Of a DNA stretch of 64,000 nt, positions 7,753 through 58,120 are shown one piece after another. Below the pieces are notes generated by a model, which searched no databases, had not been told where the DNA came from, and saw only the letters and a program-made list of their open reading frames with translations. Within the stretch, counting starts at the first letter, position 1. The number at the start of each line of letters is the position of its first letter. The stretch is from Mustelus asterias (Eukaryota): NCBI RefSeq assembly GCF_964213995.1, contig NW_027590120.1, positions 434,001 to 498,000 of the forward strand, read 5' to 3'. Position numbers and translations under genes: made by a program.

Positions 7753-9045
7753 TGTTGTTATATGGTACAGATTAGATATATTATTTATAGCTCTGTAATA
7801 AAATACACTTATTATACCTGGCTGTGTAATTTTGGACTGCAGCTATATTATATATTTCCAACAATCTCTTCCCTCAGAGAATTGTTAGATTTCTCTTCCA
7901 TAGGGACCAGTGGAGGGATTGAATATATTCAAGGATGAGTTAGACAGTTTTTGAATGACAAGGGAGTCAATAATTATTGGGGACAGGCTGGAAAATGGAG
8001 AGAAAGCTCAGATGAGACAGGATTTCTTCACTCAAGGATGTGGTGACGTTTTGGATTCTCTACCCCAGAGGACTATGGAGCCTCAGTCATCAAGAATTTT
8101 CAAGAGAGGGGTTGATAGGTTTCTAGATATTGAAGATATCGATGGATATGGGGGACAGTGTGGGGAAAATAATGCAGAGGTAGATCAACCAATAATCTGA
8201 ATGAATGGTTGAGCAGACTCGATGGGCCGAATGCTGACTGCGGCTCCTATTTGTTATGATTTCTGTGCTGGACAGGAAGCAGTGAGCATGGATCTGTCAA
8301 TCAGCCTCAATCAGCACCTTCAGGAGAATTGGGAGGGTGAATATTAGATACAGCAGAGTGAGAATGGAGGGAGAGTGTGTGGGATGGAGATTCACAGCTT
8401 TTGGGGAATGGGAGAGGAAAGAATGTTCATTAGAATCATAGAATTGCTCCATCTTATCAACCGTCCCTGAGCTTTCACAATGAATCCCACTTCTGAGGAC
8501 ACCCTTATCTCTGACTTGTCTGTACTGCTGGCAGTCTCACAAAGCAGCTGCCTGTGTGCTGATACGGGAGGCCCTGCTCGGCAAGTTTAATGCTCCATGA
8601 CTGTGTCTTTAATGAACGCTCCATAGAAACGAGAAATGTCGATTTGAATTTCGATCGTATTCTGAATTGTGATGTTTTTTCTAAATTGACTTACAGGATA
8701 TTAGACAAGGAGAAATCAGACAGAAATCTCCAACATCACATCGAGATCTGACAGAGTGACTCGATCTCTTGGGACCTGAATATCATTGGCCTTTGAATCT
8801 AACAGGAGAAATGTTTGTTTGGCCTCTTGGCTTCAAAAGATTGTAAACATCGCTGTGACTAGAACTGCAGTGAGATACACACACCCGAGTGAGAGTGTTC
8901 CAGTGCAGTGAGTGTGGAAAGAGCTTTAACCAGTTACACAGCCTGAAAATACATCACAGCATTCACAGCGGGAGAGACTGTACCCGTGTTCTGTGTGAGA
9001 TTTAACTGATTGTTTAACCTGGAGAGTCACAAGGACACCCGCACC

Positions 9046-10365
9046 ATGGAGAAACTGTGCAAATGTGGGGACTGTGGGAAGGGATTCAGATACCCATCTG
9101 CACTGGAAATTCATCAACGCAGTCACACTGGGGAGAGGCCATTCACCTGCTCTGTGTGTGGGAAGGCATTCACTCATTCATCCCACCTGCGCAGACACAA
9201 TCTCACTCACACCAATGAGAAACCCTTTAAATGCACTGACTGTGGGAGCGGATTCAGAAGCTCTCAGGATCTGGTGTCCCACCAGCGCACTCACACTGAG
9301 GAGAGACCGTTCAGCTGCTCTCACTGCTCAAAGAGGTTTAAATGGTCATCCACCCTGCGGGTACACCAGCGAGTTCACACTGGGGAGAATCCATTCACCT
9401 GCTCGGTATGTGGAAAGGGATTCACTCTTTCATTCCACCTGCGCAGACACAATCTCACACACACCAATGAGAGACTGTTTAAATGCACTGACTGTGGGAG
9501 CGGATTCAAAAGCTCTGGGGAACTGATGTCCCACCAGCGCACTCACACTGAGGAGAGACCGTTCAGCTGCTCTCACTGCTCAAAGAGGTTTAGAACTTCA
9601 TCCACACTGCAGAGACACCAGCGACTTCACACCGGGGAGAGACCGTTCACCTGCTCTGTGTGTGGGAAGGGATTCACTCAGTTATCCATCCTACTGAAAC
9701 ACAATCTCACTCACACCAATGAGAGACCATTTAAATGCTCTGACTGTGGGAGTGGTTTCAAAAGCTCTGGAGATCTGGTGTCCCACCAGCGCATTCACAC
9801 TGAGGAGAGACCGTTCAGCTGCTCTCACTGCACAAAGAGGTTTAGAAAGCCATCCAGCCTGTGGGGACATCTGCGAATTCATACCGGGGAGAGACCATTC
9901 ACCTGCTCTGTGTGTGGAACAGGATTCACTCAGTTATCCCACCTGCGCAGACACAATCTCACTCATACTAATGAGAGACCGTTTAAATGCTCTGACTGTG
10001 GGAGCGGATTCAAAAGCTCTGGGGAACTGATGATCCACCAGCGCATTCACACTGAGGAGAGACCGTTCAGCTGCTCTCACTGCTCAAAGAGGTTTAGAAC
10101 TTCATCCAACCTGCGGAGACACCAGCGAGTTCACACTGAGGAGAGACCGTTCAGCTGCTCTCAATGCACAAAGAGGTTTAAAAGGTCATCCAACCTGTGG
10201 GAACATCAGCGAGTTCACACTGGGGAAAGACCATTCCCCTGCTGTGTGTGTGGGAAGGGATTCACTACTTCATCCAACCTGCTGACACACAAAGCCACTC
10301 ACTCCAAGGAGAGACCCTTTATTGCTCTGCCTGAGAGGCCGGCTTCAGAAGCTCTCAGGAACTGA
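9046..10365 (+). CDS. C2H2 zinc-finger protein 2 (15 fingers, no KRAB), with degenerate fingers on both sides
   Basis: ORF 9010-10365 with ATG at 9046 (MEKLCKCGDC). Decayed fingers at ~8810-9040 and 10366-10715. Acceptor ttacag at 8691-8696. Confidence 0.92.
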   Translation: MEKLCKCGDCGKGFRYPSALEIHQRSHTGERPFTCSVCGKAFTHSSHLRRHNLTHTNEKPFKCTDCGSGFRSSQDLVSHQRTHTEERPFSCSHCSKRFKWSSTLRVHQRVHTGENPFTCSVCGKGFTLSFHLRRHNLTHTNERLFKCTDCGSGFKSSGELMSHQRTHTEERPFSCSHCSKRFRTSSTLQRHQRLHTGERPFTCSVCGKGFTQLSILLKHNLTHTNERPFKCSDCGSGFKSSGDLVSHQRIHTEERPFSCSHCTKRFRKPSSLWGHLRIHTGERPFTCSVCGTGFTQLSHLRRHNLTHTNERPFKCSDCGSGFKSSGELMIHQRIHTEERPFSCSHCSKRFRTSSNLRRHQRVHTEERPFSCSQCTKRFKRSSNLWEHQRVHTGERPFPCCVCGKGFTTSSNLLTHKATHSKERPFIALPERPASEALRN

Positions 10366-15478: not shown

Positions 15479-16356
15479 CCTTCAATTGTAACAGAATATG
15501 TGGCTGTATGTAGCTGCCTCGGCCATGGTCAACCCCAACACTGCCTTCTTAAACTGCTACAATGCCTCAGGTGTAAGTACACCCATAAGGAGGGATTTCC
15601 AGCTACACATTCCAGATTTTCACTAACTATAGGTGGATAGCAGATTGATATATTCCATTCAACCACACCCCCCCCAAGGTGAGTTATTCCAATTCCTTTA
15701 TTGTCCAGGACAAGATATTTACAATATCGTTAAAACTGAAATTCAACAATCCCATTTGATTTCAGGTGTTAACATATTCTGTTAGTTTGTTCTTTATTGT
15801 CAATGTCAGGCTGGGGTTGTTCCTCTTGGAGCAAAGGAGGTTGAGGGGAGATTTGATAGAGGTGGACAAGATTCTGACAGGTTTAGATAAGGTGGACAAA
15901 GAAAAGCTGTTCCCATTCGCTGATGGAACAAGGACGAGGGGCGTCACCGATTTATGGTTTTGGGTCAGAGATGCAGGGGAGGGATGTGAGGAAGAAAATT
16001 TTGATGCAGCGAATGGTAATGACCTGGAACTCGCTGCCTACGAGGGAGGAGGAAGTGGAGACAATAAACAATTACAAAGGAAATTGGATGGGCATTTGAG
16101 GGGGTTTCAAACAGAAATAGTGACTCTGAACTTCCTAACACCCTGTCACTCTGTGATCCGGGTGAAATTTGAAACCAGGTATTCGCAACAAGTCTCAAAG
16201 AGCATCAGCTCACTGGAGGCAAAGTCATGAGACCGGCCAGTCCAGCAGAAAGAAACCCTCCGACCCTCCCCATTGACCAACTGTGAGAATGAACAAAATG
16301 CAGTCCTGGCTGTAATTGAGAGCAGAAACAATAACAGCAGAATCCAACCCCTCGAA

Positions 16357-17199
16357 TCACTTGTGAACTCGCTGGTGTCTCCGCAGGTGGGATGAAAGAC
16401 TGAATCTCTTCTCACACACAGAGCAGGTGAACGGCCTCTCCCCAGTGTGAACTCGCTGGTGTATCCGCAGACTGGATGAATCACAGAATCCCTTCCCACA
16501 CTGAGGGCAGGTGAACGGCCTCTCCCCAGTGTGAACACGATGGTGTTTGTGCAGGTGGGATGACTGAGTGAATCCCTTCCCACACTGAGAGCAGGTGAAT
16601 GGCCTCTCCCCAGTGTGGACTCGCTGGTGTTTCTGCAGGTCATGTGACCGAGTGAACCCCTTCCCACACTGAGAGCAGGTGAATGGCCTCTCCCCAGAAT
16701 GAATGTGCTCATGTGTCCGCAGGTCGGAAGGCCGAGTGAATCCCTTCCCACACTGAGAGCAGGTGAACGGCCTCTCCCCAGTGTGAACCCACTTGTGTGC
16801 CCGCAGGTTGGATGAACAAGCGAATCCCTTCCCACACTGAGGGCAGGTGAATGGCCTCTCCCCAGTGTGAACTCGCTGATGTGTGCGCAGGCTGGATAAA
16901 TAACTGAATCCCTCCCCACACTGAGAACACGTGAACGGTCTCTCCCCAGTGTGAACTCGCTGGTGTGTCTGCAGGCTGGATGACTGAGTGAATCCCTCCC
17001 CACACTGAGAGCAGGTGAATGGTCTCTCCCCAGTGTGAACTCGCTGGTGTGTCTGCAGGCTGGATGACTGAGTGAATCCCTCCCCACACTGAGAGCAGGT
17101 GAATGGTCTCTCCCCAGTGTGGCTGCGCCGATGAGCTTCCAGCTCTGATGGGGCTCTGGATCTCTTCCCACAGTCCCCACATTTCCATGGTTTCTCCAT
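16357..17199 (-). CDS. C2H2 zinc-finger protein 3 (10 fingers, no KRAB)
   Basis: ORF 16357-17235 with likely ATG at 17199 ([10 protein letters not shown]). Fingers 2 and 3 have identical amino-acid sequence. Decayed fingers upstream to ~17450. Confidence 0.92.
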
Positions 17200-18225
17200 G
17201 GTGCAGGTGTCCTTGCCTCTCCCTTGGGTGGACAATCAGTTGAAGCCTTGTCCACACACAGGACACTGGTACAGTCTCTCCCCGCTGTGAATGGTGTGAT
17301 ATTTATTCAGGCTGTGTAACTGGTTAAAGCTCTTTAGTCAGTGCACTGGAACACTCTCACTCGAGTGTGGCAGTGTGTTGGTGCTTTTCCTGTCACACTG
17401 ACATTTGAAATCTTTTCAAATCAACAGACTGGACAATCATTTCTCCTTCCAGATTCAAAGGCCGATGATATTCAGCTCCCAAGGAATATGACTCTGTCAG
17501 ATCTAGATGTGACGTTTGAGATTTCAGTCTGTGATTCCTCTTTCAATATCCTGTAAAACAAGTTTATAAAAGTCATCAGTGTCAGTACAGGATAGAAATT
17601 CAGAACAGACAATTCCAGTTTCTATGGAACATTCTTTCCTATTTCAGTCCCAAAAAGCTGTAAATCTCCATCCCACACACTCTCCCTCCATTCTCACTCT
17701 GCTGTATCTAATATTCACCCTCCCAATTCTCCTGAAGGTGCTGATTGAGGCTGATTAACAGATCCATGCTCACTGCTTCCTGTCCTGGATACAGAGACCA
17801 TTACAAATAGGAGCTGCAGTCGGCCATTTGGCCCATCGAGCCTTTTAAACTATTCAATGAGATAATTTGTTCATCTACCTCAGCATCATTCTCCCCACAC
17901 TAAACCCATATCCCTTGATATCTTCAATATCTAGAAACCAATCAATCTCTCTCTTGAAAATAGTTGATGACTGAGGCTTCACTGTCCTCAGGGGTTGAGA
18001 ATTCCAAAGCTTCACCAGATCCTTGAGTGAAGAAATCCCCTCACACGGGACGAAGAAAAGAAATAATAGCTGAGGAATGGAAAATTGAGAGAAATCTTTC
18101 GAGCCTTAATCACACTGTGTCCGTGCTGTATCAAAAAAAGAAGAGATATCAACGTTTTCCCATTTTGGAGCTCTTGATCTACAAGAAACGAAGATACAGA
18201 TAAAACAACTGATTTGGATTCCAAA

Positions 18226-20988: not shown

Positions 20989-21292
20989 GCCTTTGGCTAA
21001 GATCAAGTGTAGTATGGATCGCCTGCACTTGGTTGAGGTCATTAGGTTACGCTGAGGCTTCATATGTTTCATATGAAGCAATTTTTAAAAGCGGCATCTC
21101 GGCCTTTTGGCTAAGATGCAAATGAGCTCAAGTCTTGGAGGAGGAACCTCCCCCTTCTCCAATCAGCTTGACTCATGTAGATCAGGCCCAGGACAGGGGG
21201 GTTTTGGTCTCCCGTCCTGTCTTGTCAGCCTGGATCTGAAATGTCTCAACTTGTTGAGACTCTGAATTGGATTTGATTTGATTGAATTGGAA
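20989..21292 (+). mobile_element. U2 snRNA-headed SINE-like element, copy 1 (5'-truncated), antisense in the V intron
   Basis: U2 nt ~12-39 at 20989-21015 and a second U2 piece (nt 7-27) at 21097-21117. Aligns along its length with 28331-28649. Confidence 0.85.
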
Positions 21293-21432
21293 AAGTATAA
21301 AAAAAAAGAAAATATACAGCGGATACAAAGCGGGTTAGGAGACAGAGGAAGACAATAGTCACACAGAGCTGGGAAACGGAAATTGCACAAGGGTTGAAAT
21401 ATACTTTACAATATAAGATCAGAATCACTGAC

Positions 21433-21450
21433 CTGGGATCAGAGCAATAG
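21433..21450 (-). pseudogene. Probable 3' remnant of the TCR V leader exon (…IALIP-D) with donor GTCAGT
   Basis: ATT GCT CTG ATC CCA G|gtcagt joins in phase 1 to AC GTG AGT AAC GGA GAC of the V exon. The 5' part is replaced by a Penelope tail. Confidence 0.55.
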
Positions 21451-21777
21451 TAAGAAGTCTCACAACACCAGGTTAAAGTCCAACAGGTTTTTTTTTATTT
21501 CAAAAATATACTTTATTCACACAAAAAAAACTCTCCAATAAAACATTGCAAAATTACAGATCCAAAAGTCATAAACAGTGTAAAAAAGAATCATTTTTAC
21601 AGTACAATACCGTGCTCATTTACAAAAACATTACATTCCGTTACATTTCATTTCTTAAAACTATATACATGTGTCAGAGTTTACTGTGTGCCGTTGTTTT
21701 TCAGGTTGGCACACAGTTATGCAGGCCGAGAGTATTCTGCAGTTACCCGGCCCTCGGTCTGCCTCGGTTGAGACGCT

Positions 21778-24700
21778 TTACACGGTGGCCTTTCCCCATT
21801 GTGCCTTGGCGGCGGCTGCCCCAAGCTTGAGCGCGTCCCTGAGCACGTAGTCCTGGACCTTGGAATGTGCCAGTCTGCAACACTCGGTCGAGGACAATTC
21901 TTTCAGCTGGAAGATCAGCAAGTTTCGGGCGGACCAAAGTGCGTCCTTCACCGAGTTGATGACCCTCCAGCAGTAGTTGATATTTGTCTCGGTACGCGTC
22001 CCCGGAAACAGCCCGTAGAGCACAGAGTCCTGCGTCACCGAGCTGCTCGGGACGAACCGCGACAAATACCACTGCATCTCGTTCCAGACCTTCTTTGCAA
22101 AGGCACATTCCACAAGGAGGTGTGCGACCGTCTCATCAGCCCCGCAGCCGCTTCGAGGGCAGCGTGCGGTGAGGTTGAGACCCCGGGCATGCATAAAGGA
22201 TCTGACGGGGAGTGCCCTTCTCACCACCAGCCAAGCCAGGTCTTGGTGCTTGTTTGTGAGTTCTGGTGATGAGGCATTCTGCCAAATGACATTGACAGTC
22301 CGCTCAGGGAACCATCCGACAGGATCTGCCGTCTCCTTTTCTCTCAGGGCCTCAAGGACATTACGTGCTGACCACTGCTTGATAGCCATGTGGTCAAAGG
22401 TGTGTTTCCGGAAGAATTTCTCCACGAAGGACAGGTGCTGCGGTACGGTCCAACTACTTGGAGCGTTCCGCGGCAATGTGGCCAGACCCATCCTCCGCAA
22501 CACTTGGGACAGGTAGAACCTCAAAAAATAGTGGCACTTGCTGTTACTGTACCGAGGATCTACACACAGCTTGATGCAGCCGCACACAAAGGTGGCCATC
22601 AGGATGAGGGCGGCGTTGGGAACGTTTTTCCCTCCGTTCTCTGGAGATTTGTGCATCGCCTCCCTCCGGACACGATCCATCTTTGATCTCCAGATGAACT
22701 TGAAGATGGCCCGGGTCACTGCTGCTGCGCAGGACTTGGGGAGAGGCCACACCTGCGCCACGTACAACAACACGGACAGAACCTCGCATCGGATCACAAG
22801 GTTCTTCCCAGTAATGGAGAGGGAGCGTTGCTCCCACAATCCCAATTTTTGTTTGGCTTTGGCGATGCGCTCCTCCCAGTTTTTGGCGCATGCCCCTGCC
22901 GCTCCGAACCATATCCCCAGCACCTTGAGGTAGTCTACCCTAATGGTGAAAGGGACAAAGGATGTGTCAGGCCAGTTCCCAAAGAACATGGCCTCACTCT
23001 TACCCTGGTTGACTTTGGCTCCCGAGGCCAGCTCGAACTGCTCACAGACTCGAAGAAGCCTGCGAACAGACGAGGGGTCCGAGCAGAAAACAGCCACGTC
23101 ATCCATGTAGAGGGAGGCTTTGACTTGCGTCCCTCCGCTGCCTGGGATTGTAACCCCTTTGATGCCTGAGTCGCTTCTGAGGGCCTCGGCAAAGGGTTCA
23201 ATGCAACACACAAAAAGGACGGAGGAGAGAGGGCAGCCCTGCCTGACTCCAGACCTGATTTGAAACATATCTGATTCTCACCCATTGATTGAAACTGCGC
23301 TACTGATGTCTGTGTAGAGCAGTTGGATCCAATTGCAGATTCCCTCCCCAAATCCCATTTTGGACAGCACATCCATCATGTAGCTGTGCGATATTCTGTC
23401 AAACGCCTTCTCCTGGTCTAGACTGATGAGGCAGGTGTCCACCCGCCTGTCCTGCACGTAGGCGATCGTATCCCTGAGTAGCGCAAGGCTATCAGAGATC
23501 TTCCTGCCGGGTACAGCACAGGTTTGATCAGGATGGATTACTGACCCCAGAGCAGACTTGACCCGGTTGGCGATGACCTTGGCCAGAATCTTGTAATCCA
23601 CATTCAATAGTGAAATAGGTCTCCAATTTCTAATTTCTTCCCTTTCCCCCTTCTGCTTGTAGATGAGAGTAATGATGCCTTTCCTCATGGATTCTGACAT
23701 GCTGCCTTCCAGAAGCATACTCTCGTATACTTCCAGGAGGTCCGGGCCCGTCAAGTCCCACAACGCCGAGTAAAACTCAGCCGGTAAGCCGTCGCTACCG
23801 GGAGTTTTACCCTTCTGAAGGGACTCGACGGCCTTTGTCAGCTCATCCAGAGCTACCGGTCTGTCCAGGCTCTCCCGCTCGCCGTCGTCCATGACTTGCG
23901 TGATGGACGACAGGAAAGACTGGGAGGCCGTGCTGTCTGTTGGCTTCAGGTCATACAGTCCGGCATAGAAGGATTTGCAGATCCTCAGAATGTCAGACTG
24001 CGATGACCCTACAGAGCCATCTTCTTCCTTCAGGCTTGTGATCACAGAGGATTCTCTGTGCACCTTCTGGAAGAAGAAGCGCGAGCACGTTTCGTCCTGC
24101 TCCACGAAGTGGACCCAGGACCGGAAGATAACCTTGGAGGCCTCCGAGACAAAGAGCGAGGCTTGCTGGCTCTTCACCACCCGGAGGTCCTCCTTGACAT
24201 CCACCCCCATCGACTGCAGTTGGAGTAGCTCCTGCATGCTTTTCTGGAGTCGGGACATTTCCCCCCGTCTCTCCCTGGCCTTCTGAACCCCTTTTCGGAT
24301 GAAGAACCTCTTGATGTTGCCCTTGATGGTTTCCCACCAGAGCGATGGAGACTCAAAGAAGGGTTTCACGGTCCTCCAACCGTGGTAAACCCTCTTGAGT
24401 TCCTCGAGGTTCTCTGGGGTCAACAGTTCTACATTAAGCTTCCAGGACCCCCTGCCCACTTTCTGGTTTTGCTCCAGCTGACAGTCTGCCAGCAGGAGGC
24501 AGTGGTCAGAGAAGAACACCGGCTTGACGTCGGTGGACCTGACCGTGAGCGTGCGGGATGCAAACATGAAGTCGATCCTGGAGCGGACAGACCCGTCTGG
24601 CCGCGACCACGTGTATCTACGCTGCCCTCCGTCTGCTGGATTGCTGAAGACGTCGAGCAGCCTGGCATCTTTGACTGTTTCCAGCAGGGCTCTGGACGTA

Positions 24701-25186
24701 GCGTCCAGTTTACTTTCGGCCCTGTTGGATCGGCCGGCCTTGTCAATGATGCAGTTAAAGTCCCCACCCAGTATGATTGGCCTGGAGGTGGTGAGTAGCA
24801 GTGGCAGCTGTTCGAAGAGTGCCAGCCGCTCGGTCTTGATGGCAGGGGCATACACATTGATCAGCCTGAGAGGGCAGTTTTTGTACGTGACATCTGCTAC
24901 GAGGAGGCGTCCTCCCACCACCTCCTTAACTTCGGAGACGGTGAAGTTGCCCCCCCCGCAGCAGAATGCCTAGGCCTGATGAACGGCAGTCGTTCCCACC
25001 TGACCAGATGGACGGTCCGTGGGACCACACACTCGACCAGCGCCTGTAGTTGCTGAGGTGTGGTATTCCACACTCCTGCAGGAACAGCAGGTCGGCCTTG
25101 ATCTTGGCCAGGTAGGACAAGCTGGCCGCACATCTCAGGCTGTCTTTAACACTGCGAACATTTAAGGATGCAAACTTTAAAGACAT
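21778..25186 (-). pseudogene. Tx1 ORF2 (endonuclease-reverse transcriptase), one frameshift and one in-frame stop
   Basis: MSLKFASLNVRS...LQE, GGDFN, SRIDF, SDH, WRPISLLN, QGCPLS, YMDD, CPRSGC...H...C. Frameshift in the G-run at ~24950; TGA at 23278-23280 followed by in-frame continuation. Confidence 0.93.
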
Positions 25187-25224
25187 TTTAATGTTTAAGA
25201 GGTTTGTCAGTTCTTACGTGTCCT

Positions 25225-26617
25225 TCAGTCAGCCTCCTCCAGGTGCTGCATTCCTGTGGCGCTGACGAAATTCTGCAGGGCTGCAGGGCTGAGGTAGCAG
25301 TCCGACCCTGCCTCAGGTCCCCGACCACGACTGGGTGACATGGTCGGTGTCGTGTAGCCCTCGGTTGGTGCCGGGCTTGCGGGCCGATCTCCGCCTTGGG
25401 CGTTGTCGGTGTCCTCGTTCCTGTTGTCCGGGGTTTCGGGGGCCTCGGCCGCACTGCTGCATCCGTCGGCTGGATGGTCCCCGGCTGCTTTGTGGTCATT
25501 GGTCCGAGTCCATTGTGGTTCCCGTGCCGCTTTCCTAATGCACCGTTTGAGGCTTTGTCGGCTGCCCGCTTTCTTTTCCTCGTCTGAGGAGACGTCGCCC
25601 CTGGAGACCCTGGCTGCGCAGGATTTCCTTTTCTGGGTGCTTTTCTTCTTCTTTACCACCTGCCAGGGGCCCTCGGGATCTCCGTTCTCCTGCTCCATGT
25701 CCTCTGCGCCCTCTGCTGGTGGTGGTGTGGATGTGTCATCATCCTGCTGCACTGGGGGGGGGGGGGGGGGGGGGCACCTTTGCTTCAGAAGCTTTCTCCG
25801 TGCCAGGATCTTTTGCGGTGGGCTTCTTGTTCCCTGAGGCGGCAGGAGCACTCGCCTTCCTCGCTCCGCCTCCGGTGATCTGGGCGTAAGTGACCTTCCG
25901 CTTGGGGCAGACTCTGTAAACGCGGCCAGTCTCCCCACACAGGGTGCAACATTTGCTGTCTTTGCACTCGTCGGTCGAGTGCCCCTCCTTCAGGCAGTTT
26001 CTGCATACGGTGACACTGCAGCTCGCGGCAAAATGGCCGGTTTTGCCACAGTTGCGGCACAGTCGTGGCTGGCCCGTGTAGTACAGGAAGCCTCGATTCC
26101 CTCCGATGGTAAAATTGGAGGGCGGGTGCAGAAGGCCTCCCTTGGGGTCAGTCTTCAGGGTGACTCTCACCTACCTTTTACAGGTCCATATTCCATACTG
26201 GTCCATGACGTCCACGCTCTCTCCCTTCACCTCCACGTACCGGGAGAGGAACGTCAGCACGTCAGCCGCAGGGACGTAGTGGTTATACATTTGGAATGTG
26301 ATAACCCGGTTCCGCTGGGACGGCATGGTGAACAGGGGCTCCGCCGTCAGGATAGAGAGGGGCTCCTCTTTGCCTTTCTCCTTCACCGCTGTCAGGAGCT
26401 TGACGCATCCTGACAGGCTTCTGAAGCTGACATCCACATGTGGCGGCTTGCTGTACTCAGCCACACCATAGATGTCTGCTGCTTGGAATCCGCAGCACTC
26501 GAACAATACCTTCTTCACGAGGTAATCGCGGCCCAGAGGCGAGCCTCCTCCCGAAGGCTTCACCCGGATGGTGTTGGGCTGCCTTTGGCCTGTAGCTTTC
26601 AGAGCAGCTGCAGCCAT
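25225..26617 (-). pseudogene. Tx1 ORF1 (ZCCHC3-like zinc-knuckle protein), one in-frame TAG and a homopolymer frameshift
   Basis: CRNCGKTGHFAASC, CRNCLKEGHSTDEC, CTLCGETGRVYRVC. TAG at 26171-26173; frameshift in the homopolymer at ~25754-25774. Confidence 0.88.
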
Positions 26618-26819
26618 AGCTCGAAAACACTGAGTCTTACTGTACCGGCGTTAGGTCCAAGCCAGAGGCTTGAAACCAGCATAAAGGTCCACCAGTAGCA
26701 GCAGAGCTCAAGTGTTGCAGACGGTCGTCTGCCGGTCGTCTGACGCCTGCTTCTTCAATCCACAATCCCCATCGAAACTCGATAGCTCCTTGCGAAATCC
26801 GAGCCCTTGGCTTTGATCA

Positions 26820-26854
26820 TACACTTGATCTTAGCCAAAAGGCCGAGAAGCGAT
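26820..26854 (-). ncRNA. U2 snRNA 5' fragment (nt 1-35) as the 5' end of the Tx1 element; not a U2 gene
   Basis: Reverse complement reads ATCGCTTCTCGGCCTTTTGGCTAAGATCAAGTGTA, matching the vertebrate U2 5' end. No U2 3' part is present. Confidence 0.95.
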
Positions 26855-27690
26855 CGTCTCTCTTGCCCGTGACGCTCCTTGCATTGAAGCAGATGCACTC
26901 CAGACCTCCAGGCTCACTGAGGTCATCCTCCCCCAGAATGCTCTTCCTCTTAGGTAGCCTTGTCTTGTCCCCAGCCTCTATGCTTATTGACCTATTGTTC
27001 TGATCCCCCCCCCCCCCGCCACATTAGTTTAAACCCACCCGAACCGCACTCGCAAAACTCCCAACTAGGATATTCTTGCCCCTCCAGTTTAGGTGTAACC
27101 CATCCTTCTTGTACAGGTGCCATCCTCTCTTGAAGACTTTCCAGTGATCCACGAATTTGAATCCCTCCCTCCTGCACCAGTCTTTTAGCCACGTGTTCAG
27201 CTTTACAATCTCCCAGTTCCTCGCCTCACCAGCTTGTGGCACTGGGAGTTGTCCAGAGATCGCTACCCTTAGAGGTCCTGCTTTTCAGCCTACTACCCAA
27301 CTCCCTGAATTGCTCTCTCAGGACCTCCCTGCTCTTTCTGCCTATGTCATTTGCACCAATGTGGACAATGATGTCTGTCTGGTTACCCGCCCCTTTTAGG
27401 ATGCTTCCTTCCCGTTAAGAGACATCCAGGACCCTGGTACCAGGGAAGCAGACTACCATCCTGGAGTCTCGTTCACGCCCAGAGAACCGCCTGCCTGTGC
27501 CTCTAACTGTTGCATCCCCACTACTATTGCTCTCATAGTCCCCCCTCTTTCCCTTCTGAGCCACAGAGCCCGAATCCGTGCCAGTGACCCAGTCACCGTG
27601 GCTTCCCCCTGGAGGGTCATCCCCCCCCCCCCCCCACCCCACAGTATCCAAAACTGTATACTTATTCTGGAGGGGGACAACCCCTCCATT
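26855..27690 (-). mobile_element. CR1 LINE 5' part: ORF1 esterase region and start of ORF2, cut by the Tx1 element
   Basis: VVCFPGTRV, WLKDWCRREGF and KDGLHLN (SGNH-like). ORF2 start GLECICFNARSVTGKRD abuts U2 +1. Confidence 0.85.
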
Positions 27691-27719
27691 CGTCAGATCT
27701 CGAAGCTTAAGTCCTGAAG

Positions 27720-28330
27720 AATATTCAGGCTTAACCTGATAAATGGCAAGTAATGTTTCACTGCACAAGTGCCAGGCAAGGACCATCTCCAACAGAAAGG
27801 AATCTAACCATATTCCCTTTACTTTGAATGGCAGCACCATTGCTGAATCCTTAACCATCAACATCCTGGCTGGTGGGGGCACACTGGGACCATTGGCCAG
27901 ACACGGAACTGTAAACGCTACGGCTCCAAGAGTTGGTCAGAGTCTGTGAATTCAGATGAGCAATTTGCTTCCTGTTTCTCAAATGCTTGTCCTCCATCTA
28001 CAAGGCACAAATCAGCAGTATGATGGAATCCACTCATCTTGATGGAATGAGTGCAGCTTCAAAAACACTCAAGAAACTCATCCATGACAAAGGAGCCACT
28101 GGATCAGCAGGCCGTTTACCAAATTAAACATTGACTCCACCACTGACACACAGTGGCAGCATTGTGTACCACATACAAGGTGGACTGTAGCAACTCACCA
28201 GGGCTCCTGAGACAGCATCTTCCAAACACGTACTACCTATCACCTAGATGGGCAAAGATATCAGATGAATGGAACAACAACGACCTTCAGATTCCCTTCC
28301 GAGCCAGACACCATCCTGACTTGGAATATA
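27720..28330 (+). mobile_element. Degraded LINE 3' region (CR1/L2 superfamily), host of the second U2-SINE
   Basis: aagtgccaggcaaggaccatctccaaca and catctacaaggcacaa motifs, ending caccatcctgacttggaa; the repeat resumes after 28650. Confidence 0.55.
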
Positions 28331-28649
28331 TTCGCTTCTCGGCCTTTTGGCTAAGATCAAGTGTAGTATGGATTGGATGCTGCACTTGGCTGAGGTCATT
28401 ATGTTACACTGAAGCTTCATATGTTTCATATCAAGCAATTTTTAATAGCGGCACCTCGGCCTTTTGGCTAAGATGCAAATGAGCTCAAGTCTTGGAGGAG
28501 GTGTTGCTTTGCTCCTCCAATCAGCTTGCCTCATGTAGATCAGGCCCAGGACAGGGTGGTTTGGTCGCTCGCCCTGTCTTGTCAGCCTGGATCTGAAATG
28601 TCTCAACTTGTTGAGACTTTGAATTGGATTTGATTTGATTGAATTGGAA
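28331..28649 (+). mobile_element. U2 snRNA-headed SINE-like element, copy 2 (near full length)
   Basis: U2 nt 2-39 at 28332-28369, second U2 piece (nt 8-27) at 28455-28474. Candidate TSD ttggaatat at 28321-28329 and 28644-28652. Confidence 0.88.
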
Positions 28650-28799
28650 TATTGCTTTTGCATCAGTGCTGTGGGATCAAATCCTGGACATCTCTTCCTA
28701 ACGGCATTGTACCAGATGGCTGCAGATTTTAAGAAGTTGATTCACCACCACCTTCTCTAGGGCAATTGGGGATGGGCTACAAGTCCTCGCATTGCCAAT

Positions 28800-30659: not shown

Positions 30660-31015
30660 ATCTTCAGCACAGTGACTCCAGGGAGCTCAATCAGAACAGA
30701 GTAGAATCAGGGAAGAGAGAGCACACGCCCTATTTACAGCACAGTGACCCTGGGAGCTGCATCAGAGCAGAGCATAGACAGGGAAGAGAGAGTACACACC
30801 CTATTTACAGCACAGTGACTCCGGGGAACTCCGTCACAGCAGAGTAGAGTTGGGGAAGAGTGAGCACACACCCTATTTACAGCACAGTGACCCCGGGGAA
30901 CTCTGTCACAGCAGAGTAGAGTTGGGGAAGAGAGAGCACACACCCTATTTACAGCACAGTGACTCCGGGGAACTCCGTCACAGCAGAGTAGAGTTGGGGA
31001 AGAGAGAGCACATAC
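30660..31015. repeat. ~72-bp minisatellite, 5 copies
   Basis: cacagtga recurs at 30668, 30740, 30811, 30883 and 30955. Confidence 0.92.
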
Positions 31016-32059
31016 CCTGCACTGCGATAAGGTTAAAGGTCCAGACAATTAATGTTACTGAATACTGGTGTTTAAAGCCAGTTGAATGGTTCGTCGGGGA
31101 CGAGGGAACAGGACAGAAGAATAGTTGTGGGACTCAGGGGAGTTGGGGGGGTTTAGTTCTGGTTCATTGGGGGATGTTAGTTGGGGGTTTTGGATGGTGA
31201 TCATGTCATTGGGATCTAGTGGGATCTGGCTGAGTGCTGGGTTTTGTGGTTGATTAGGAGAATTGGAGAAGGCAGTGGAGTCACGTTGGGTCAGGGATAA
31301 TGAAGATAAACCAGGTTATCCAAGGTTGTTGTATGCTGGTCAGTGGGCGTGATTGGATGAATCGGTTGTGGCGTTACTCAGGTATTAGATTAGATTGTGC
31401 GCTGTCTAACATTACCTGAGTAACTATCCAGGTGATCATGTGAATCTGTCCCAAGTCTCCGATTCTAACTGCGAGTCAGAGATATTCACCCAGGGTCGCG
31501 GGCAGCAGGAAAATTCTCCATTGGCAATTTAAACCTCTCAGGCATTTCCGAGGTAGATCCGTGCGTCAGGACATCCAAAGGGTCCCGATGCTCATCTTCA
31601 GTTGTGTGTCTGGTCTCTGGCGATCCAGCAACCAGAAGATTTGTCCCATTAGCTCCAGTCTCCTGTTATTTACTCTGTTGTTCAATCTGTTTATTTTCTG
31701 TTTCTTCTTTAATCTATTTCAGGCTGAGGAGTAATCAGTTCAGTCCAAATGGAGAGAGACACCTGGAGTCACTGCGGGGATCCAGACCGGGACTGGAAGT
31801 GTTCGTGTGAACATTACAATTTATAAACATTGCTGCTCCACCGCGTGCAGTGAATTCCTGAACTGTGCAGTTCTGTGCACCATTTTTGTCTCCACATTGA
31901 AAGAACAATTGCTGCAAACCATTGTTTAAACAGCAATGCGTTGTCAGTGTTCTCAGCAATAAAGTCTTCACCCTCCTTTCAAAAGGGAGCAGCTAAGATA
32001 ATTCTCCAGAGAGAGAACAGTGGATGTGTGTGTGTGAGAGAGAGAAATTCTAACAGTAC

Positions 32060-39436: not shown

Positions 39437-40136
39437 AGTCTGGGTTCACTCTGACCGTTGAGATTCAGTGTCTCAGGCCTGGTTGTGTTCACTCTGTCCT
39501 TTCAGATTCAGTGTCTCAGACCTGGCTGGGTTCCCACTGTCCTTTGAGATTCAATGTCTCAGGCCTGGTTGGGTTCACTGTGTCCTTTCAGATTCCGTGT
39601 CTCAGGGTTGGCTGGGTTCACTTTGTCCTTTGAGATTCAGTGTCACAGGCCTGGCTAGGTTCACTCTGTCCTTTGAGATACAGTGTCTCAGGCCTGGTTG
39701 GGTTCACTGTGTCCTTTCAGATTCAGTGTCTCAGGGCTGGCTGGGTTCACTTTGTCCTTTCAGATTCAGTGTCTCAGGGTTGGCTGGGTTAACTTTGTCC
39801 TTTGAGATTCAATGTCTCAGGGCTGGCTGGGTTCACTTTGTTCTTTCAGATTCAATGTCTCAGGGCTGGTTGGGTTCACTGTGTCCTTTCAGATTCAGTG
39901 TCTCAGGGCTGGCTGGGTTCACTTTGTCCTTTGAGATTCCGTGTCTCAGGCCTGGTTGGGTTCACTGTGTCCTTTCAGATTCAGTGTCTCAGGCCTGGTT
40001 GGGTTCACTTTGTCCTTTCAGATTCAGTGTCTCAGGCCTGGCTGGGTTCACGCTGTCCTTTGAGATTCAGTGTCTCAGGCATGGTTGGGTTCGCTGTGTC
40101 CTTTAAGATTCACTGTCACAGGCCTGGCTGGATGTG
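39437..40136 (-). repeat. 43-bp satellite block (~16 units), inverted relative to the block at 52.8-61.3 kb
   Basis: Unit ggttcactgtgtcctttgagattcagtgtctcaggcctggctg. Confidence 0.93.
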
Positions 40137-52785: not shown

Positions 52786-53392
52786 CACATCCAGGCCTGT
52801 GACACTGAATCTCAAATAAAAGTTTGAACACAGCCAGGCCTGTGACACTGAATCTCAAAATACACATTGAACCCAGCCAGGCCGAAGAGCTTGAATCTCA
52901 AAAGACAGAGTGAATCCAGCTAAGACTGTGACACTGAATCTCAAAAGACTGAATGAACCCAGCCAGGTCTGAGACACTGAAACTCAAAGAACAGAGTGAA
53001 CACAGCCAGGCCTCTGACACTGAATCTCAAAGGACAGAGTGAAGCCAGCCAGGCCTGTGACACAGAATATCAAATGTCAGAGTGAACCCCGTGAGGCCTG
53101 AGCCACTGAATCTCAAGGGACAGAGTGAATCTAGCCAGGCCTGTGGCACTCAATCTCAAATAGCAGTGGGAACACAGCCGGGCCTGTGACACTGAAGCTC
53201 AAAGGACAGAATGTATCCAGCCAGGTCTGTGACACTGAATATGAAAGGACACAGTGATTCCAACCAGGCCTGTGACACTGAATCTCAAAGGACGCAGTGT
53301 ATCCAGCCGGGCCTGTGACACCCAAACTGAAAGGATACACTGATCCCAACCAGGCCTGTGACACTGAATCGGAAAGAACAGAGTGAACGCAG
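52786..53392 (+). repeat. 43-bp satellite, left of the Gypsy insertion
   Basis: Unit cagccaggcctgtgacactgaatctcaaaggacagagtgaacc. Confidence 0.93.
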
Positions 53393-54152
53393 TCATGCGC
53401 GATTAAATCACTCGGGATGCTGTACGTACCCGGGAAATAAAGGCTTTTATTAGTAACAAGAATGGAGCACACTATATTACAATACAATCCCAGACTAAAG
53501 GGTCACCAGGCAGTGCAGTGACCTTTGTACTGCTACAGGTAGGCGGAGCCAACTGGAGTGTACCACAAAACAATACCAACAGGTAGAACACCCCAACCCT
53601 AACCCCAACAGTGTCAACAGTAGTATATACACGAGATACCCATAGTGCTAACCATCTATGGTTCAGTACCCATAGTGGTAACCATCTATGGTTCACCACA
53701 TTCACCCCTCCTTTAAGACAAAAGGCCAGTGGGGCAAACAAAAGAAGAGAAAAAAAAAGTGCAAACTGTCCATAATGTCACAGGTTCAGTCTTTTCGGAG
53801 GGCCGCACCGTCTCTGCAATCTCCTCAACACTGGCGGTAGCGCCGGTTCTGGTGACCGTGATGACCCTCTCTCCAAAACGGTGTCCAGAGACTCCTCCAG
53901 TTCCTCACGGACAGGTGGACCACGAGGTGGCGATGACCTCCTGGACTCAAGCACGCCCCGAGGTGGCGACAATCTCCTGGACTCAGGCAAGCTGTACACA
54001 GGAGTAAGAGGGTTAAGTGGTGGTCCCGATACTGCCCGCGCCTTGTCAGGAGGGGAGATAATGGTCAAGGGGTCCCTAACCAGGGGTGCGCGAGCGACAG
54101 GGGTTTCCAAGTCCCCTGCAGGTGCCAGATCTCGAATAGAGACCGTGTCCTC

Positions 54153-55637
54153 TCACCCGTCAGGATATGCCACATAGGCATATGGAGGGTTGGCGTGTAG
54201 GAGGTGGACCTGTTCAACCAAAGGGTCAGACTTGCAGGTCCTAACATGCCGCCGCAGGAGGACAGGTCCTGAGTACATCAACCAAGACGGCAGTGAGGTC
54301 CCAGAGGAAGACTTCCTAGGGAAGGTAAACATCCGCTCATGTGGGGTAGCGTTGGTTGCCGTACACAGGAGGGACCGGAATGAGTGGAGCGCATCAGAAA
54401 GTACCTCTTGCCAACGGGAGACTGGAAGACCCTTGGACCTCAAGGCCAGTAAGACAGCCTTCCAGACTGTAGCATTTTCTCTTTCAACCTGCCCGTTACC
54501 CCTGGGATTGTAACTCGTCGTACGACTTGTGGCAATCCCTTTTGAGAGCATGTATTGCCTCAAGTCGTCACTCATAAATGACGAGCCCCTGTCACTATGT
54601 ATATAGCTGGGGTAACCGAACAGTGTGAAAAGATCCCTCAACGCTTTAATAACCGTGGCAGTGATCATGTCTGAACAGGGAATGGCAAAAGGGAATCGGG
54701 AGTACTCGTCAATCACATTGAGGAAGTACACATTCCGATCTGTCGAAGGAAGGGAGCCCTTGAAGTCCACACTCAGTCTTTCAAAGGGCCGAGTGGCCTT
54801 AATGAGATGTGCCCTGTCAGGTCGGTAGAAGTGCGGCTTGCATTCAGCACATACCTGGCAGCTTCGGGTTATTGACATGACATCCTCCACTGAGTGGGGT
54901 AGATTTCGGGCCTTTATGAAATGGAAGAGCCGAGTGATCCCCGGATGGCAGAGATCATTGTGGAGGGCCTGTAATCGATCCTCCTGCACACTGGCACATG
55001 TTCCACGCGACAGGGCGTCTGGGGGCTCATTGAGCTTCCCCGGACGGTACATGATATCATAGTTGTAGGTGGAGAGTTCAATTCTCCACTTCAAGATTTT
55101 ATCATTTTTGATCTTACCCCGTAACGTGTTGTTGAACATGAACGCCACGGACCGCTGGTCCATGAGCAGGGTAAATAATTTCCCAGCCAAGTAATGGCGC
55201 CAATGCCGTACGGCCTCCCCAGTGGCCTGAGCCTCGTTTTCCACCGCGGAGTGCCGAATTTCAGGGCCTTGGAGGGTGCGAGAGGAAATGGCGACGGGCC
55301 TGCCCACTTGGTTGAGTGTGGCGGCCAGGGCGAAGTCAGATGCATCACTCTCCACCTGAAAGGAGATGGATTCATCAACAGCGTGCATCGTGGCCTTCGC
55401 GATGTCAGCTTTTATCCCTTCAAAGGCTAAGCGTGCCTCTGCTGCCAGGGGAAAAGAAGTAGACTTAATAAGTGGACGGGCTTTGTCCGCATAGTTGGGG
55501 ACCCACTGTGCGTAGTATGAGAAGAAGTCTATGCATCTTCTCAGTGCTTTAATGCTCGTGGGTAAGGGAAGTGCAAGGAGGGGACACATGCAGTCTGGAT
55601 CAGGGCCAAGGACCCCGTTTTCCACCACGTAATCCAA
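54153..55637 (-). pseudogene. Gypsy RNase H-integrase
   Basis: SDASD RNase H, HHCC (H..HPG..CQVC), and the DDE core (SVDF, HSDRG, GQVER). Confidence 0.92.
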
Positions 55638-55716
55638 GAATAGCTAGGCGGCGGTTGCTAAAGACACACTTCTCCCTGTTATAGGTCAAATTCAGGCGAG
55701 ACGCATTGCGTAAGAA

Positions 55717-57768
55717 CTATAGGAGGTTTGCGTCGTGGTCCTGCTGGTCATGGCCGCAGATAGTGACGTTGTCCAGGTACGGGAAGGTAGCCCGTCGCCC
55801 GTTTTGGTCCACCATTCGGTCCATTGAATGCTGGAAGACCGAGACCCCATTCGTGACGCCAAAGGGGACCCTTAAGAAATGATAGAGACGACCATCCGCC
55901 TCAAAGGCCATGTATGTTCGGTCCTCTGGGCGAATGGGGAGCTGGTGGTAGGCTGACTTCAAGTCGATGGTGGAGAACACCCAGTACTGCGCAATCTGGT
56001 TGACCATGTCAGATATGCGCGGGAGAGGATACGCATCCAACTGCGTGTATCTATTAATGGTCTGACTATAGTCTATGACCATCCGGGGTTTGTCTCCAGT
56101 TTTAACCACCATGACTTGTGCTCTCCATGGGCTAGAGCTAGGTTGAATGATCCCTTCCCTGAGGAGCCGCTGAACCTCAGATCGAATAACGATCCGATCC
56201 TCAGCGCTGTAACGCCTGCTCTTAGTTGCAATGGGCTTGCAGCCTGGCACGAGATTCTCGAATAAAGATGGCGGGGTGATTCTGAGTGTCGAGAGGCTAC
56301 ACGTGGAGTGCGCTGGGCAATTTGGAGGCTGCTGTTCTCCCACTGAAAGTGAAGGGAGTGGCCCATTGTACTGCAGGGTCACCCTCCGCAGGTGGACCAT
56401 AAAGTCTAGCCCCAGGAGTATCGGAGCACCAAGGTGCGGTGACACGAGGAGCCTGAAGTGCTCGTAAACTGTGCCTCGCACCGTTAGGTTGACCACGCAG
56501 CTCCTGAGCACAGTAACAGATCGGGACCTCGACGCCATCGAAATTGTCTGTCTGACAGTCTGTACTCGGAGTCCGCACCGTTTTACAGTGTCAGGGTGAA
56601 TAAAAGTCTCCGTGCTCCCACTATCAAACAGACAATGAAATGGGCGTCCATTTACCTCTATGCCCATCATGGACTTGTCGAGTCTGTGAGGCTTGGCCTG
56701 GTCCAGGACGACTGACGCCACCGTTGAGCCTGGATTGCAACTGTACGCAGCTGAGATGGTTGATGGAAGATGACCCTGCTGGTCGTCTGTGGTTGGTGCC
56801 GACCAAAATGGCTGCGCCCATGGATCGCACATGGTCGGTGGCGCTGAAAGTGGCGGCACCTGCAGGTCGCATGCGTCTTGCGCCGTCGTCGTCAGGAATG
56901 GCGGCGTCCATGAACCGCACGTGGTGGAAGACCTCGATGAAGCCTGAGACAAGGAGACAGATTCTGGAGAATCACACGCCGCACTGCTATTCTTCGAAGG
57001 TGGTTTAGCTCTACATACTTTGGCATAGTGCCCTTTCTTCCCACACGCAGAGCAAAATACCGTTCTGGCCGGACATCGCTGCCGAGGGTGTTTCGCCAAA
57101 CCACAGAAATAGCACCATGGGCCTCCTGGAGCAGCCACCGTCGTCAGGTCCGAGGTTGCAGGCACGATCGCGCAGTTTCTCAGAGCCGCTGAGTAATGTT
57201 GGTTCGGTGGCTGTACTTGCCACGACGTTCCCACGTGGTCGGTGGGGTAGGTTTCTCGGCTTCTGGAGGCCGTTTCCATCATGTCAGCCAATTCCACCGT
57301 CTTAGCTAGGTCTAGGTTGCCTTGCTCTAGCAGCCGCAGGCAAATGTAGGATGAGCTGATTCCCGCCACAAACGCATCTCGGATCAAATCGTTAGTATAC
57401 TGGGCCACCGACACAGGCTTGCAATTGCAGGCTCTGGCTAGCTGCTGAAGTTTGCACAGGTACTGCCCCGTCGTTTCACCGGGCTGCCGCCGTCGGGTGG
57501 CTAGAAGGTGTCGAGCATGAATCTCGTTTGGCGATTTGTTGTACAGTTTCTTAAGTAGTTCGATGGCCGCTTTGTAGTCAGGGGCATCGCGGATTGATGA
57601 GTATACAGTGTCGCTTACCCTTGCGTGGAGGACCCGCAGTCGATCGGCGTCGCTTTGAATGGCTGTTGAGGCCTTGACATAATCTTGGAAACACTTGAGC
57701 CAATGATCGAACATGATTGACGCACGCGGATCTAACGTCAGTCGATCAGGTTTCAACAGTTGCTCCAT
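55717..57768 (-). pseudogene. Gypsy Gag-protease-RT (ends in a premature stop)
   Basis: CYFC...H...C and CSAC...H...C knuckles, protease LFDSGS, RT YLDN (YxDD mutated). Confidence 0.92.
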
Positions 57769-58120
57769 GGTTCTTTTTTTTTCTTGTTAACCAAATTTGT
57801 TACTAATAAAATTGATGCGTGATTAAATCACTCGGGATGCTGTACGTACCCGGGAAATAAAGGCTTTTATTAGTAACAAGAATGGAGCACACTATATTAC
57901 AATACAATCCCTGACTAAAGGGTCACCAGGCAGTGCAGTGACCTTTATACTGCTACAGGTAGGCGGAGCCAACTGGAGTGTACCACAAAACAATACCAAC
58001 AGGTAGAACACCCCAACCCTAACCCCAACAGTGTCAACAGTAGTATATACACGAGATACCCATAGTGCTAACCATCTATGGTTCAGTACCCATAGTGGTA
58101 ACCATCTATGGTTCACCACA

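Follow-up and report, generated by a model that had tools for sequence, protein, structure and literature searches.

U2-Derived Pieces and Retroelements in the Window

The window, a DNA stretch of 64,000 nucleotides, contains a Tx1 LINE, two copies of a SINE, and five pieces of the U2 5' region. Their positions are as follows.

20989..21312, + strand: SINE copy 1, 98% identical to family copy L082
20992-21015, + strand: U2 nt 16-39 piece, outer head of SINE copy 1
21094-21117, + strand: U2 nt 4-27 piece, inner piece of SINE copy 1
21488..26854, - strand: Tx1 LINE, full extent 5.37 kb, 97% identical to L224, A-tail at the 21488 end
21778..25186, - strand: ORF2, with APE endonuclease, reverse transcriptase, and zf-RVT; frameshift near 24950, stop near 23278
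25225..26617, - strand: ORF1, with two ZCCHC3-type RNA-binding domains and a CCHC knuckle; stop near 26171, frameshift near 25760
26854-26820, - strand: U2 nt 1-35 piece, the LINE head, an integral feature of the family
28332..28650, + strand: SINE copy 2, with a U2 nt 2-39 head and an inner U2 piece
28332-28369, + strand: U2 nt 2-39 piece, head of SINE copy 2
about 28451-28474, + strand: U2 nt 4/8-27 piece, inner piece of SINE copy 2

A sequence-only reading had counted five U2 5' fragments without the rest of U2. All five were located by BLAST of the 64-kb window against a genomic U2 gene (E 1e-5 to 1e-14), and none of the five ran on into the remaining U2. SINE copy 1 consisted of a head from about U2 nt 13-16, a spacer of ~80 nt, the inner U2 piece, a structured body, and a short A-tail, with no clear target-site duplication in its flanks. 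SINE copy 2 lacked an A-tail, and its last ~9 nt matched the flank upstream of it. The two copies were 87% identical over the aligned region, flanks included. Copies L004 and L008 shared the flanks of the window SINE and L036 shared a flank of the window LINE, indicating segmental duplication for these copies. For a zinc-finger protein encoded in the window, the match of highest identity was to a horn shark protein (61% over 38% of the query), and the matches with the best scores came from other vertebrates.

The Keno-Type Tx1 LINE

The domains found with Pfam fit a Tx1-type ORF1 and an APE-RT ORF2. The closest proteins to ORF2 were unnamed amphibian ORF2s with 44-47% identity. The full-length extent and U2 head proposed for this LINE were borne out, but the element is dead, each ORF having one stop and one frameshift. 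The two flanks of the window LINE formed no target-site duplication. In L224, ORF2 was open and had APE and RT motifs, and none of the 22 LINE copies checked had both ORFs open. U2 sequence was present at all 30 LINE 5' ends read out of 51 LINE 5'-UTR matches, nine of the 30 being units of one amplified array. The concern that other Tx1 copies might lack the U2 head did not hold among those read.

The SINE Family

The SINE is non-coding and ~320 nt long, and exact 3'-end matching gave at least 4,139 copies genome-wide. An A-tail was present in 28 of 30 sampled copies. Target duplications of at least 8 nt were called in 62 of 129 copies, some of them artefacts of A-runs. The copy number, the A-tails, and duplications of ~11 nt bore out the earlier reading of the ~300-bp repeat as a SINE. 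Local duplication, with only two copies in existence, was rejected as the origin of the repeat by the genome-wide copy number. One recurrent repeat in the flanking DNA was counted, and it matched only 2 of 129 SINE 3' flanks.

When 5' ends were tabulated against U2 +1, they piled up at nt 1-13 (23/30 in a positional sample); overall, 104 of 129 copies began at about U2 nt 1-13/14. The tree and the junction set were built from these 104 copies, which start at U2 nt 14 or earlier. Head-to-body junctions fell into 30 classes, one of which held 33 copies. That this is a true family was shown by subfamilies with common junctions and by a star whose copies are nearly identical. U2-linked SINEs occupied at least nine separate places in the tree. 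None of the U2-embedded SINEs was at zero distance from the star of the youngest subfamily, and nearest-neighbour distances were 1.3-8.7%.

Strong structure marked the SINE body in five of six copies (z -4 to -7), and two column pairs had compensatory changes, so the body is evidently under some selection. In one copy scanned with consensus patterns, there was no B-box, only loose A-box-like matches were seen, and T4/T5 runs lay inside the element. None of the SINE copies read had a U1 head; a 14-mer resembling U1 in front of L239 was not significant (E 0.46). None of six RNA runs from three organisms was listed as containing the SINE, a result that speaks neither for nor against its expression.

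Target Site and the Probable LINE-SINE Partnership

Both LINE and SINE inserted before U2 nt 38/39. This is the quoted Keno target and agrees with the expectation of Keno-type insertion near nt 35-40. Nine SINE tails adjoined U2 nt 39-47 (10 matches, control 0). Among ~282 LINE 3' ends, 25 tails adjoined the U2 site, 15 of them in one amplified array; the counts of 25 and ~282 came from two slightly different search patterns. About 9 of 4,139 SINE 3' ends and about 11 independent LINE 3' ends of ~282 were thus at the U2 site. The other 99.8% of SINE copies and about 90% or more of LINE 3' ends lay outside U2, and the LINE is not strictly U2-specific. Of 19 distinct U2 3' remainders, 13 began at nt 38, directly after a LINE or SINE tail.

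The off-target logos of LINE and SINE were compared after tandem copies had been removed, along with those lacking a called duplication and six sites that did not start with A. A pyrimidine preceded the A in 28/30 SINE and 14/15 LINE sites, and A/T followed it in 28/30 and 12/15, respectively. This weak motif agreed in both elements. Median duplication lengths at off-target sites were 11 nt for the SINE (n=30) and 12 nt for the LINE (n=15). The target behaviour of the SINE thus matched the Tx1 element, and not CR1/L2, the match that had been named as adverse to the partnership. At 3 of 30 LINE 3' ends, a SINE followed across a common duplication, forming a mixed stack. The sequence-only reading saw no clear 3' tail shared by LINE and SINE; this was overturned by a short common 3' terminus, whose similarity becomes weak once the final 22 nt are removed (p about 0.05-0.07).

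Mobilisation of the SINE by an unrelated CR1/L2 or L1 LINE would make the common U2 head a coincidence. The common tail is short, its significance is only modest, and A-tails with 10-15-nt duplications are also compatible with L1. The identical U2 nt 38/39 junction, the matching logos and duplication lengths, and the mixed stacks at one duplication argue against such a LINE, and this explanation is very improbable. As judged from sequence, the SINE is probably mobilised by a Tx1-clade LINE, given the common insertion site, the agreeing logos and duplication lengths, and the mixed stacks. A second Keno-like family had the same terminal motif at its 3' end and also inserted in U2, so the exact LINE partner is not fixed.

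U2 Loci as Probable Sources

Type B is a compact variant U2 locus with 448-bp units, four of them intact and seven interrupted. In three type-B units, an element was fused exactly at +1: two LINEs and one SINE. Source copies had been predicted to sit in U2 genes, and these loci accordingly had the upstream U2 flank, the element at +1, and the U2 remainder downstream. The downstream remainder expected of a source locus was therefore found; the upstream PSE/DSE motif was not demonstrated by comparing U1 with U2 flanks. No significant upstream motif linked U1 to either type of U2; the octamer was confined to U1 flanks and did not occur within 300 nt of either type. A 3'-box-like motif, judged by eye, followed U1, U2A, and U2B. 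The C24 array (8,035-bp, 16 units) was rejected as a master locus and was amplified passively; its LINE had no adjacent U2 upstream flank, was broken by a ~350-bp insert, and had broken ORFs.

In 13 of 14 rows, an extra U2 piece ahead of the head had its end within nt 43-59, that is, at site 38 plus one duplication length. Nine own-head rows of a SINE subfamily and seven full-length U2 were left out of the tables of extra pieces and U2 remainders. Duplications of 21 nt (L061), 15 nt (L129), and 14 nt (L062) were seen directly in U2 genes. Nine dispersed composites carried type-B spacer ahead of the head (2 of the 21 matches in the underlying search were chance), and seven of the nine had 10-18-nt duplications. 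In three of these seven, the outer end was reset to U2 nt 6-12. To judge from their structure, the composites establish RNAs initiated upstream; they do not establish initiation at the +1 of the element itself. Some source RNAs would have begun upstream of that point by read-through of the array. In the LINE tree, which left out L153, L157, and the array duplicates L160-L167, the dispersed LINE L140 was sister (100/99) to the type-B-fused L156, with 98.8% identity, inside the type-B clade.

The heads might instead arise case by case, by the reverse transcriptase jumping to abundant U2 snRNA, with element RNAs coming from unrelated host read-through. The junction behind the head does vary between subfamilies, the head of L261 runs on to U2 nt 94, and template switching was argued for the 5' extensions of crocodilian SINEU (Kojima, PMC4494074). 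The sharing of junctions within subfamilies, the nt 43-59 ends of the extra pieces, and the matching duplications in U2 genes oppose it, and mature snRNA cannot supply intergenic spacer. Template switching is improbable as the origin of the heads.

Transcription could also start at the head from an internal promoter in the SINE body and the LINE 5' UTR. U2 genes would then be mainly a preferred sink and the spacer-bearing composites rare side products. L1-type LINEs have internal Pol II promoters. The large off-U2 majority of SINE copies, the youngest subfamily without an assembled U2-embedded master, and the selection suggested by the structured body are in keeping with this. Against it, no B-box was present and the T-runs would stop Pol III; the outer end of compound copies is reset to U2 nt 6-12 even where spacer lies between it and the SINE body; L140 falls among the type-B copies; and snRNA genes are not reported to have an internal promoter (PMC4494074). 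An internal promoter is considered unlikely, though less so than template switching.

Proposed Mechanism

The interpretation of the sequence-only reading is largely supported. The locus probably represents a SINEU-like element mobilised by a Keno-type Tx1 LINE, both using U2 gene arrays as source loci. From the insertion pattern observed, the LINE endonuclease would prefer the site before U2 nt 38/39 and mostly cut relaxed RGY|AW sites elsewhere. U2 nt 1-35/39 is the own 5' end of both LINE and SINE RNAs. Insertion into a U2 gene could have two outcomes, and both structures were observed. In the first, the head would replace the first ~38 nt of the gene and place the element exactly at +1 behind the upstream flank. 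Joining may proceed by homology between head and target, by analogy with R2. In the second, the duplication would leave U2 1-(43 to 59) in front of the element.

The U2 locus would drive transcription of U2-embedded copies, either from +1 or through read-through of upstream units, and the RNAs would be reverse-transcribed from an internal A-tract and then scattered. Some scattered copies carry U2-locus DNA, which suggests transcription from U2 gene clusters rather than from an own promoter; spacer-carrying retrocopies evidence this for a minority of copies, and for the majority we infer it. Dispersed copies would be promoterless and mostly dead ends, so the family would last only by re-entering U2 genes, above all type B. 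A bolder version, somewhat short of even chances, is that the U2 head is a promoter-reacquisition device. The promoterless SINE and LINE would persist only by re-fusing at U2 +1, with the type-B locus, possibly germline-expressed, as the nursery of nearly all ~4,000 dispersed copies. The idea of a germline-variant U2 is speculation, since a literature search on it gave nothing relevant.

Comparison with Known Systems

SINEU and a U2-headed Tx1 are already known in crocodilians (PMC4494074). SINEU-1/-2/-3 were found there only in crocodilians and target Mariner-N4, with no LINE sharing their 3' end (Kojima 2015, PMC4494074). No SINEU source was found there in snRNA genes, and SINEU transcription was left as an open question (PMC4494074). 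Set against crocodilian SINEU by description, the present SINE has an snRNA head, a non-coding multicopy unit of <500 bp, an A-tail, duplications, and family structure. Both are short non-autonomous retroposons with a U2-derived head, repeated U2 pieces, an A-tail, and duplications of ~10 nt. They also have in common tandem insertions with a duplication sandwiched between them, oligo-T, the lack of a Pol III promoter, a Tx1-clade partner, and 5' snRNA extensions. The present family differs in a partner LINE that still targets U2 itself, in the short 3' terminus common to LINE and SINE, in the absence of a U1 head from the SINE copies read, and in U2-embedded copies and spacer-bearing retrocopies that point to the source.

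Keno (Kojima and Fujiwara 2004), a U2-specific LINE of the Tx1 clade as described in papers that cite it (PMC6136364, PMC4640811, PMC4494074), targets a 20-nt U2 site 37-38 nt into U2 (PMC6136364, PMC4640811). The present LINE resembles it in having APE endonuclease and RT and a 3' junction before that quoted 20-nt target. Compared with Keno as so described, its specificity is relaxed, with about 90% or more of the 3' ends at other sites, the U2 head belongs to the element even at non-U2 sites, and it has an abundant SINE. Tx1-Mar (Tx1-11_Crp, PMC4494074) is likewise a LINE related to Keno, and its U2 head is almost the same as that of its presumed SINE; it prefers a Mariner element, whereas the present LINE keeps the U2 site. 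In R2 (PMC4494074), co-transcription with 28S similarly makes the target gene the source of transcription, and re-integration may be helped by 5' sequence derived from the target. R2 differs in endonuclease class and in its Pol I rDNA locus, compared with the Pol II snRNA locus here, where most progeny are off-target. Utopia (PMC4640811) uses the same U2 site and makes 20-bp duplications in reptile families. Identity with Utopia was rejected, as Utopia has a restriction-like endonuclease and the present LINE an APE.

No report of SINEU outside crocodilians was found in the literature searched, which lay outside most subscription journals and Repbase Reports. If confirmed, the present family would extend SINEU beyond crocodilians and represent a SINE class living on an external Pol II snRNA promoter. 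It would also explain how a LINE that is site-specific and has only about 100 targets gives rise to thousands of off-target copies. Promoter reacquisition, if true, would account for the transcription of snRNA-headed SINEs and would give a second SINEU origin, directly from Keno. The present genome provides addressable loci, namely +1-fused elements, spacer-carrying dispersed daughters, and a partner LINE still targeting U2, and the variant U2 locus is flagged as being under heavy retroelement load.

Elements in the window

The five U2 5' pieces named in the sequence-only reading were found at their positions in the window, and none (0/5) ran on into further U2. One piece heads a LINE, and the remaining four are parts of two copies of one ~320-nt repeat, as had been described. 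The elements are:

20989..21312, plus strand, U2-headed repeat (SINE)
21488..26854, minus strand, U2-headed Keno-type Tx1 element (LINE)
28332..28650, plus strand, second copy of the SINE

The LINE is 5.37 kb long, with a Tx1-type ORF1 (ZCCHC3-like RNA-binding domains and a CCHC knuckle) and an ORF2 of APE-RT-zf architecture. The claimed U2-headed Tx1 element was thus present, but this copy is dead: each ORF contains one stop and one frameshift. No target-site duplication (TSD) was found around it. Its 3' flank is a different repeat from its 5' flank, which suggests deletion or recombination. The 5' flank (26855-26930) and a SINE-bearing insertion on contig C24 (L065:2930-3030) map to an identical nucleotide position in a shared host repeat. 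Read 5' to 3', the SINE begins with U2 nt 1-39 and a ~80-nt spacer that closes on a T/A run; U2 nt 4-27 come next, then the structured body and finally a short A-tail.

The SINE and LINE families

The 23-nt 3' motif of the SINE gave 4,139 matches in the 3.68-Gb genome and the reversed control gave none, so the repeat is a SINE rather than a two-copy duplication. The 5' ends were tabulated relative to U2 +1, as had been proposed, for the 30 matches that come first on contig C1. Of these, 23 began within U2 nt 1-13, one began at nt 29, and six were truncated more deeply. An A-tail was present in 28 of these, and at least eight stood in tandem stacks. Among 129 distinct copies, a set enriched for full-length copies by the manner of locus choice, 104 began within nt 1-13. 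In 5/6 copies the fold of the body was much stronger than in shuffles (z -4 to -7); one body hairpin had two compensatory column pairs. Consensus box patterns found no B-box in the one copy scanned; T4/T5 runs lay inside it.

At four loci (L029, L010, L030 and L179), 3-6 SINEs from different subfamilies are stacked, with identities of about 80-98% to a reference copy; the same duplication separates the members, and some stacks include a LINE piece. Each marks repeated use of a single site over a long period. The junction directly behind an existing SINE's U2 head is a secondary insertion hot spot, with antisense SINE and LINE insertions (L012, L182 and L237). At L261 (G000:C1:112.24 Mb), the left half of an old SINE is tandemly duplicated; its inner head extends into type-B U2 as far as nt 94, beyond which the sequence is unrelated. 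This locus may record the origin of the SINE double head.

The LINE 5'-UTR motif downstream of the head gave 51 matches. U2 sequence preceded it in all 30 that were read, nine of which were units of one amplified array; one had only 7 nt of U2 and another had U2 nt 10-59 instead. The U2 head is an integral part of the LINE. Among 22 copies surveyed, only L224 had an open ORF2 frame (1,144 codons), and none had both ORFs open. An internally deleted derivative, in which the U2 head and 5' UTR are joined directly to the 3' end, was found at L239:544-1021 (G000:C24:41.72 Mb). Its junction region matched at 8/40 places scored, several near U2 remainders; these may represent either another non-autonomous family or segmental copies.

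Common target site of the LINE and the SINE

Insertion in U2 near nt 35-40, as predicted, was found for both elements. U2 nt 39-47 directly followed 25 of about 282 LINE 3' ends (15 of the 25 in one amplified array), and a SINE tail followed by U2 nt 39-47 gave 10 matches, nine with the A-tail directly adjoining. At the loci read, 13/19 distinct U2 3' remainders began at nt 38 right behind the tail (LINE 9, SINE 4). The Keno target, as quoted in PMC6136364 and PMC4640811, is this site.

Comparison of targets away from U2 gave a weak RGY|AW site common to both elements. Against background A-run starts, GC before the A occurred at 12 SINE sites (n=30, p 6e-6) and 4 LINE sites (n=15, p 0.04). The median TSD was 11 nt for the SINE and 12 nt for the LINE. 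Three of 30 LINE 3' ends were followed by a SINE across a common TSD, chance adjacency being about 1e-4 per site by our own arithmetic; at a fourth, the LINE was inserted antisense into a SINE head. The view that the two have no clear 3' likeness needs amending: the final ~75 nt of the SINE can be aligned with the 3' UTR of the LINE (500 dinucleotide shuffles; p 0.004-0.02 for the seven young-subfamily tails shown, p 0.05-0.4 for four others), a similarity that is borderline once the terminal 22 nt are removed. It is very improbable that an unrelated partner LINE moves the SINE. Another Keno-like family, more distantly related, ends in a similar 3' terminus, and this is followed by the U2 remainder from nt 38-40 onward (L064:8223-8466, L065:1778-1960 and L200); the Keno-type LINE is therefore a candidate partner, not the only one.

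U2 loci holding elements

U2 nt 40-72 gave 118 genome matches, 100 of them listed. The predicted source-type loci, with a SINE or LINE at +1 behind a U2 upstream flank, were present for both U2 gene types. Type A forms a 1,833-bp array on C24 of about 41 units, judged by spacing. A SINE was fused at +1 in one of the last three units, which were those read; the type-A pattern matched nowhere else. Another C24 array repeats an 8,035-bp unit 16 times (G000:C24:44.815-44.936 Mb; L061, L064 and L065), and every unit combines a single intact U2 gene with a single dead, interrupted LINE. This LINE has a 21-nt U2 duplication at its flanks and lacks its own upstream U2 flank; the array is a broken LINE amplified along with U2.

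Type B is a structurally intact variant about 90% identical to type A (175 vs 186 bits), and its last stem contains one compensatory pair. Its 448-bp units lie at G000:C21:28.04-28.08 Mb (L128-L132), with inversions; four are intact and 7/11 are interrupted, with two LINEs and one SINE beginning exactly at +1 behind the spacer.

As expected of source loci, U2 flank lay upstream of such elements and the U2 remainder downstream. In the look for a PSE/DSE, no upstream motif significantly common to U1 and U2 genes was found, nor an octamer within 300 nt for either U2 type. A 3'-box-like motif was seen by eye after U1 and both U2 types.

Probable progeny of the U2 loci

The type-B upstream pattern gave 21 matches: eight at C21, two by chance and 11 dispersed, which collapse to nine composites carrying type-B spacer. 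Inspection by eye placed 10-18-nt TSDs around 7/9; these composites are therefore retrocopies of RNAs containing intergenic spacer. They prove RNAs initiated upstream, as distinct from RNAs that start at +1 of the element itself. At L112, three successive units each hold a SINE, and U2 remainders separate the SINEs. L108, L122 and L126 have U2 beginning at nt 6-12 and ending at nt 43-48, then a spacer piece and the SINE, a layout that we interpret as two rounds: a read-through RNA would have inserted in a U2 gene with a TSD and then been re-transcribed from the gene start.

Extra U2 pieces ahead of the head ended at nt 43-59 in 13/14 rows (11 loci). These end points lie one TSD length beyond site 38, and TSDs of 14, 15 and 21 nt are observed directly in U2 genes. 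Addition of heads case by case by template switching, which PMC4494074 favours for crocodilian SINEU, is improbable, since such ends do not resemble the outcome of random switching over 190 nt.

The dispersed LINE L140/L224 has an 8-nt deletion in common with the C21 copies and 98.8% identity over 1 kb with the +1-fused L156, whose sister it is (100/99) inside the C21 clade of the LINE tree. On the SINE tree, U2-locus context (13 SINEs) required 12 changes, of which well-supported branches force nine or more; re-entry into U2 has thus recurred, in subfamilies both old and young. A bias toward type B as source is suggestive only, since the type-A and type-B searches were unsymmetrical.

A Keno-type LINE and its SINE, both with the U2 5' end, would re-enter U2 genes at nt 38, sometimes displacing the gene's first bases. 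The U2 locus would transcribe the re-entered copies, and most progeny would settle at relaxed sites as dead ends. We regard this account as probable. An internal promoter driving the elements, with U2 genes as a sink, would accord with the location of about 99.8% of SINEs outside U2 and with the finding of no U2-embedded copy identical to the youngest subfamily; it is rather unlikely.

Comparison with known systems

The U2-headed LINE/SINE system is real. In PMC4494074, SINEU are described in crocodilians only, moved by the Keno-related Tx1-Mar, and some of them carry a U1 or U2 head; no common 3' end with the LINE was found there, and transcription was left open, with upstream promoters suggested. 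PMC5786205 and PMC5381603 repeat this account. A literature search outside Repbase, Dfam and the 2004 Keno paper returned no SINEU beyond crocodilians. The SINE here has the structure of a SINEU, a likeness of anatomy that may or may not extend to homology with the named crocodilian families, and works alike with Keno as partner. Keno is strictly U2-specific, whereas the LINE here is not. The system is of interest because the open question of SINEU transcription becomes testable at defined loci.

Other features of the window

9010-10365, plus strand, C2H2 zinc-finger array exon (Pfam)
16362-17121, within 16146-17306, minus strand, second array with 84-bp period
53637-58115, minus strand, LTR-type retroelement with protease, RT, RNase H and integrase in two open stretches
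30660-31041, 39440-40131, 52791-53392 and 58123-61325, 72-bp minisatellite and several 43-bp satellite blocks

The surroundings of the zinc-finger arrays are segmentally duplicated on C147 and C158. The LTR-type retroelement has a 30-bp tandem repeat at both ends and sits inside the 43-bp satellite.
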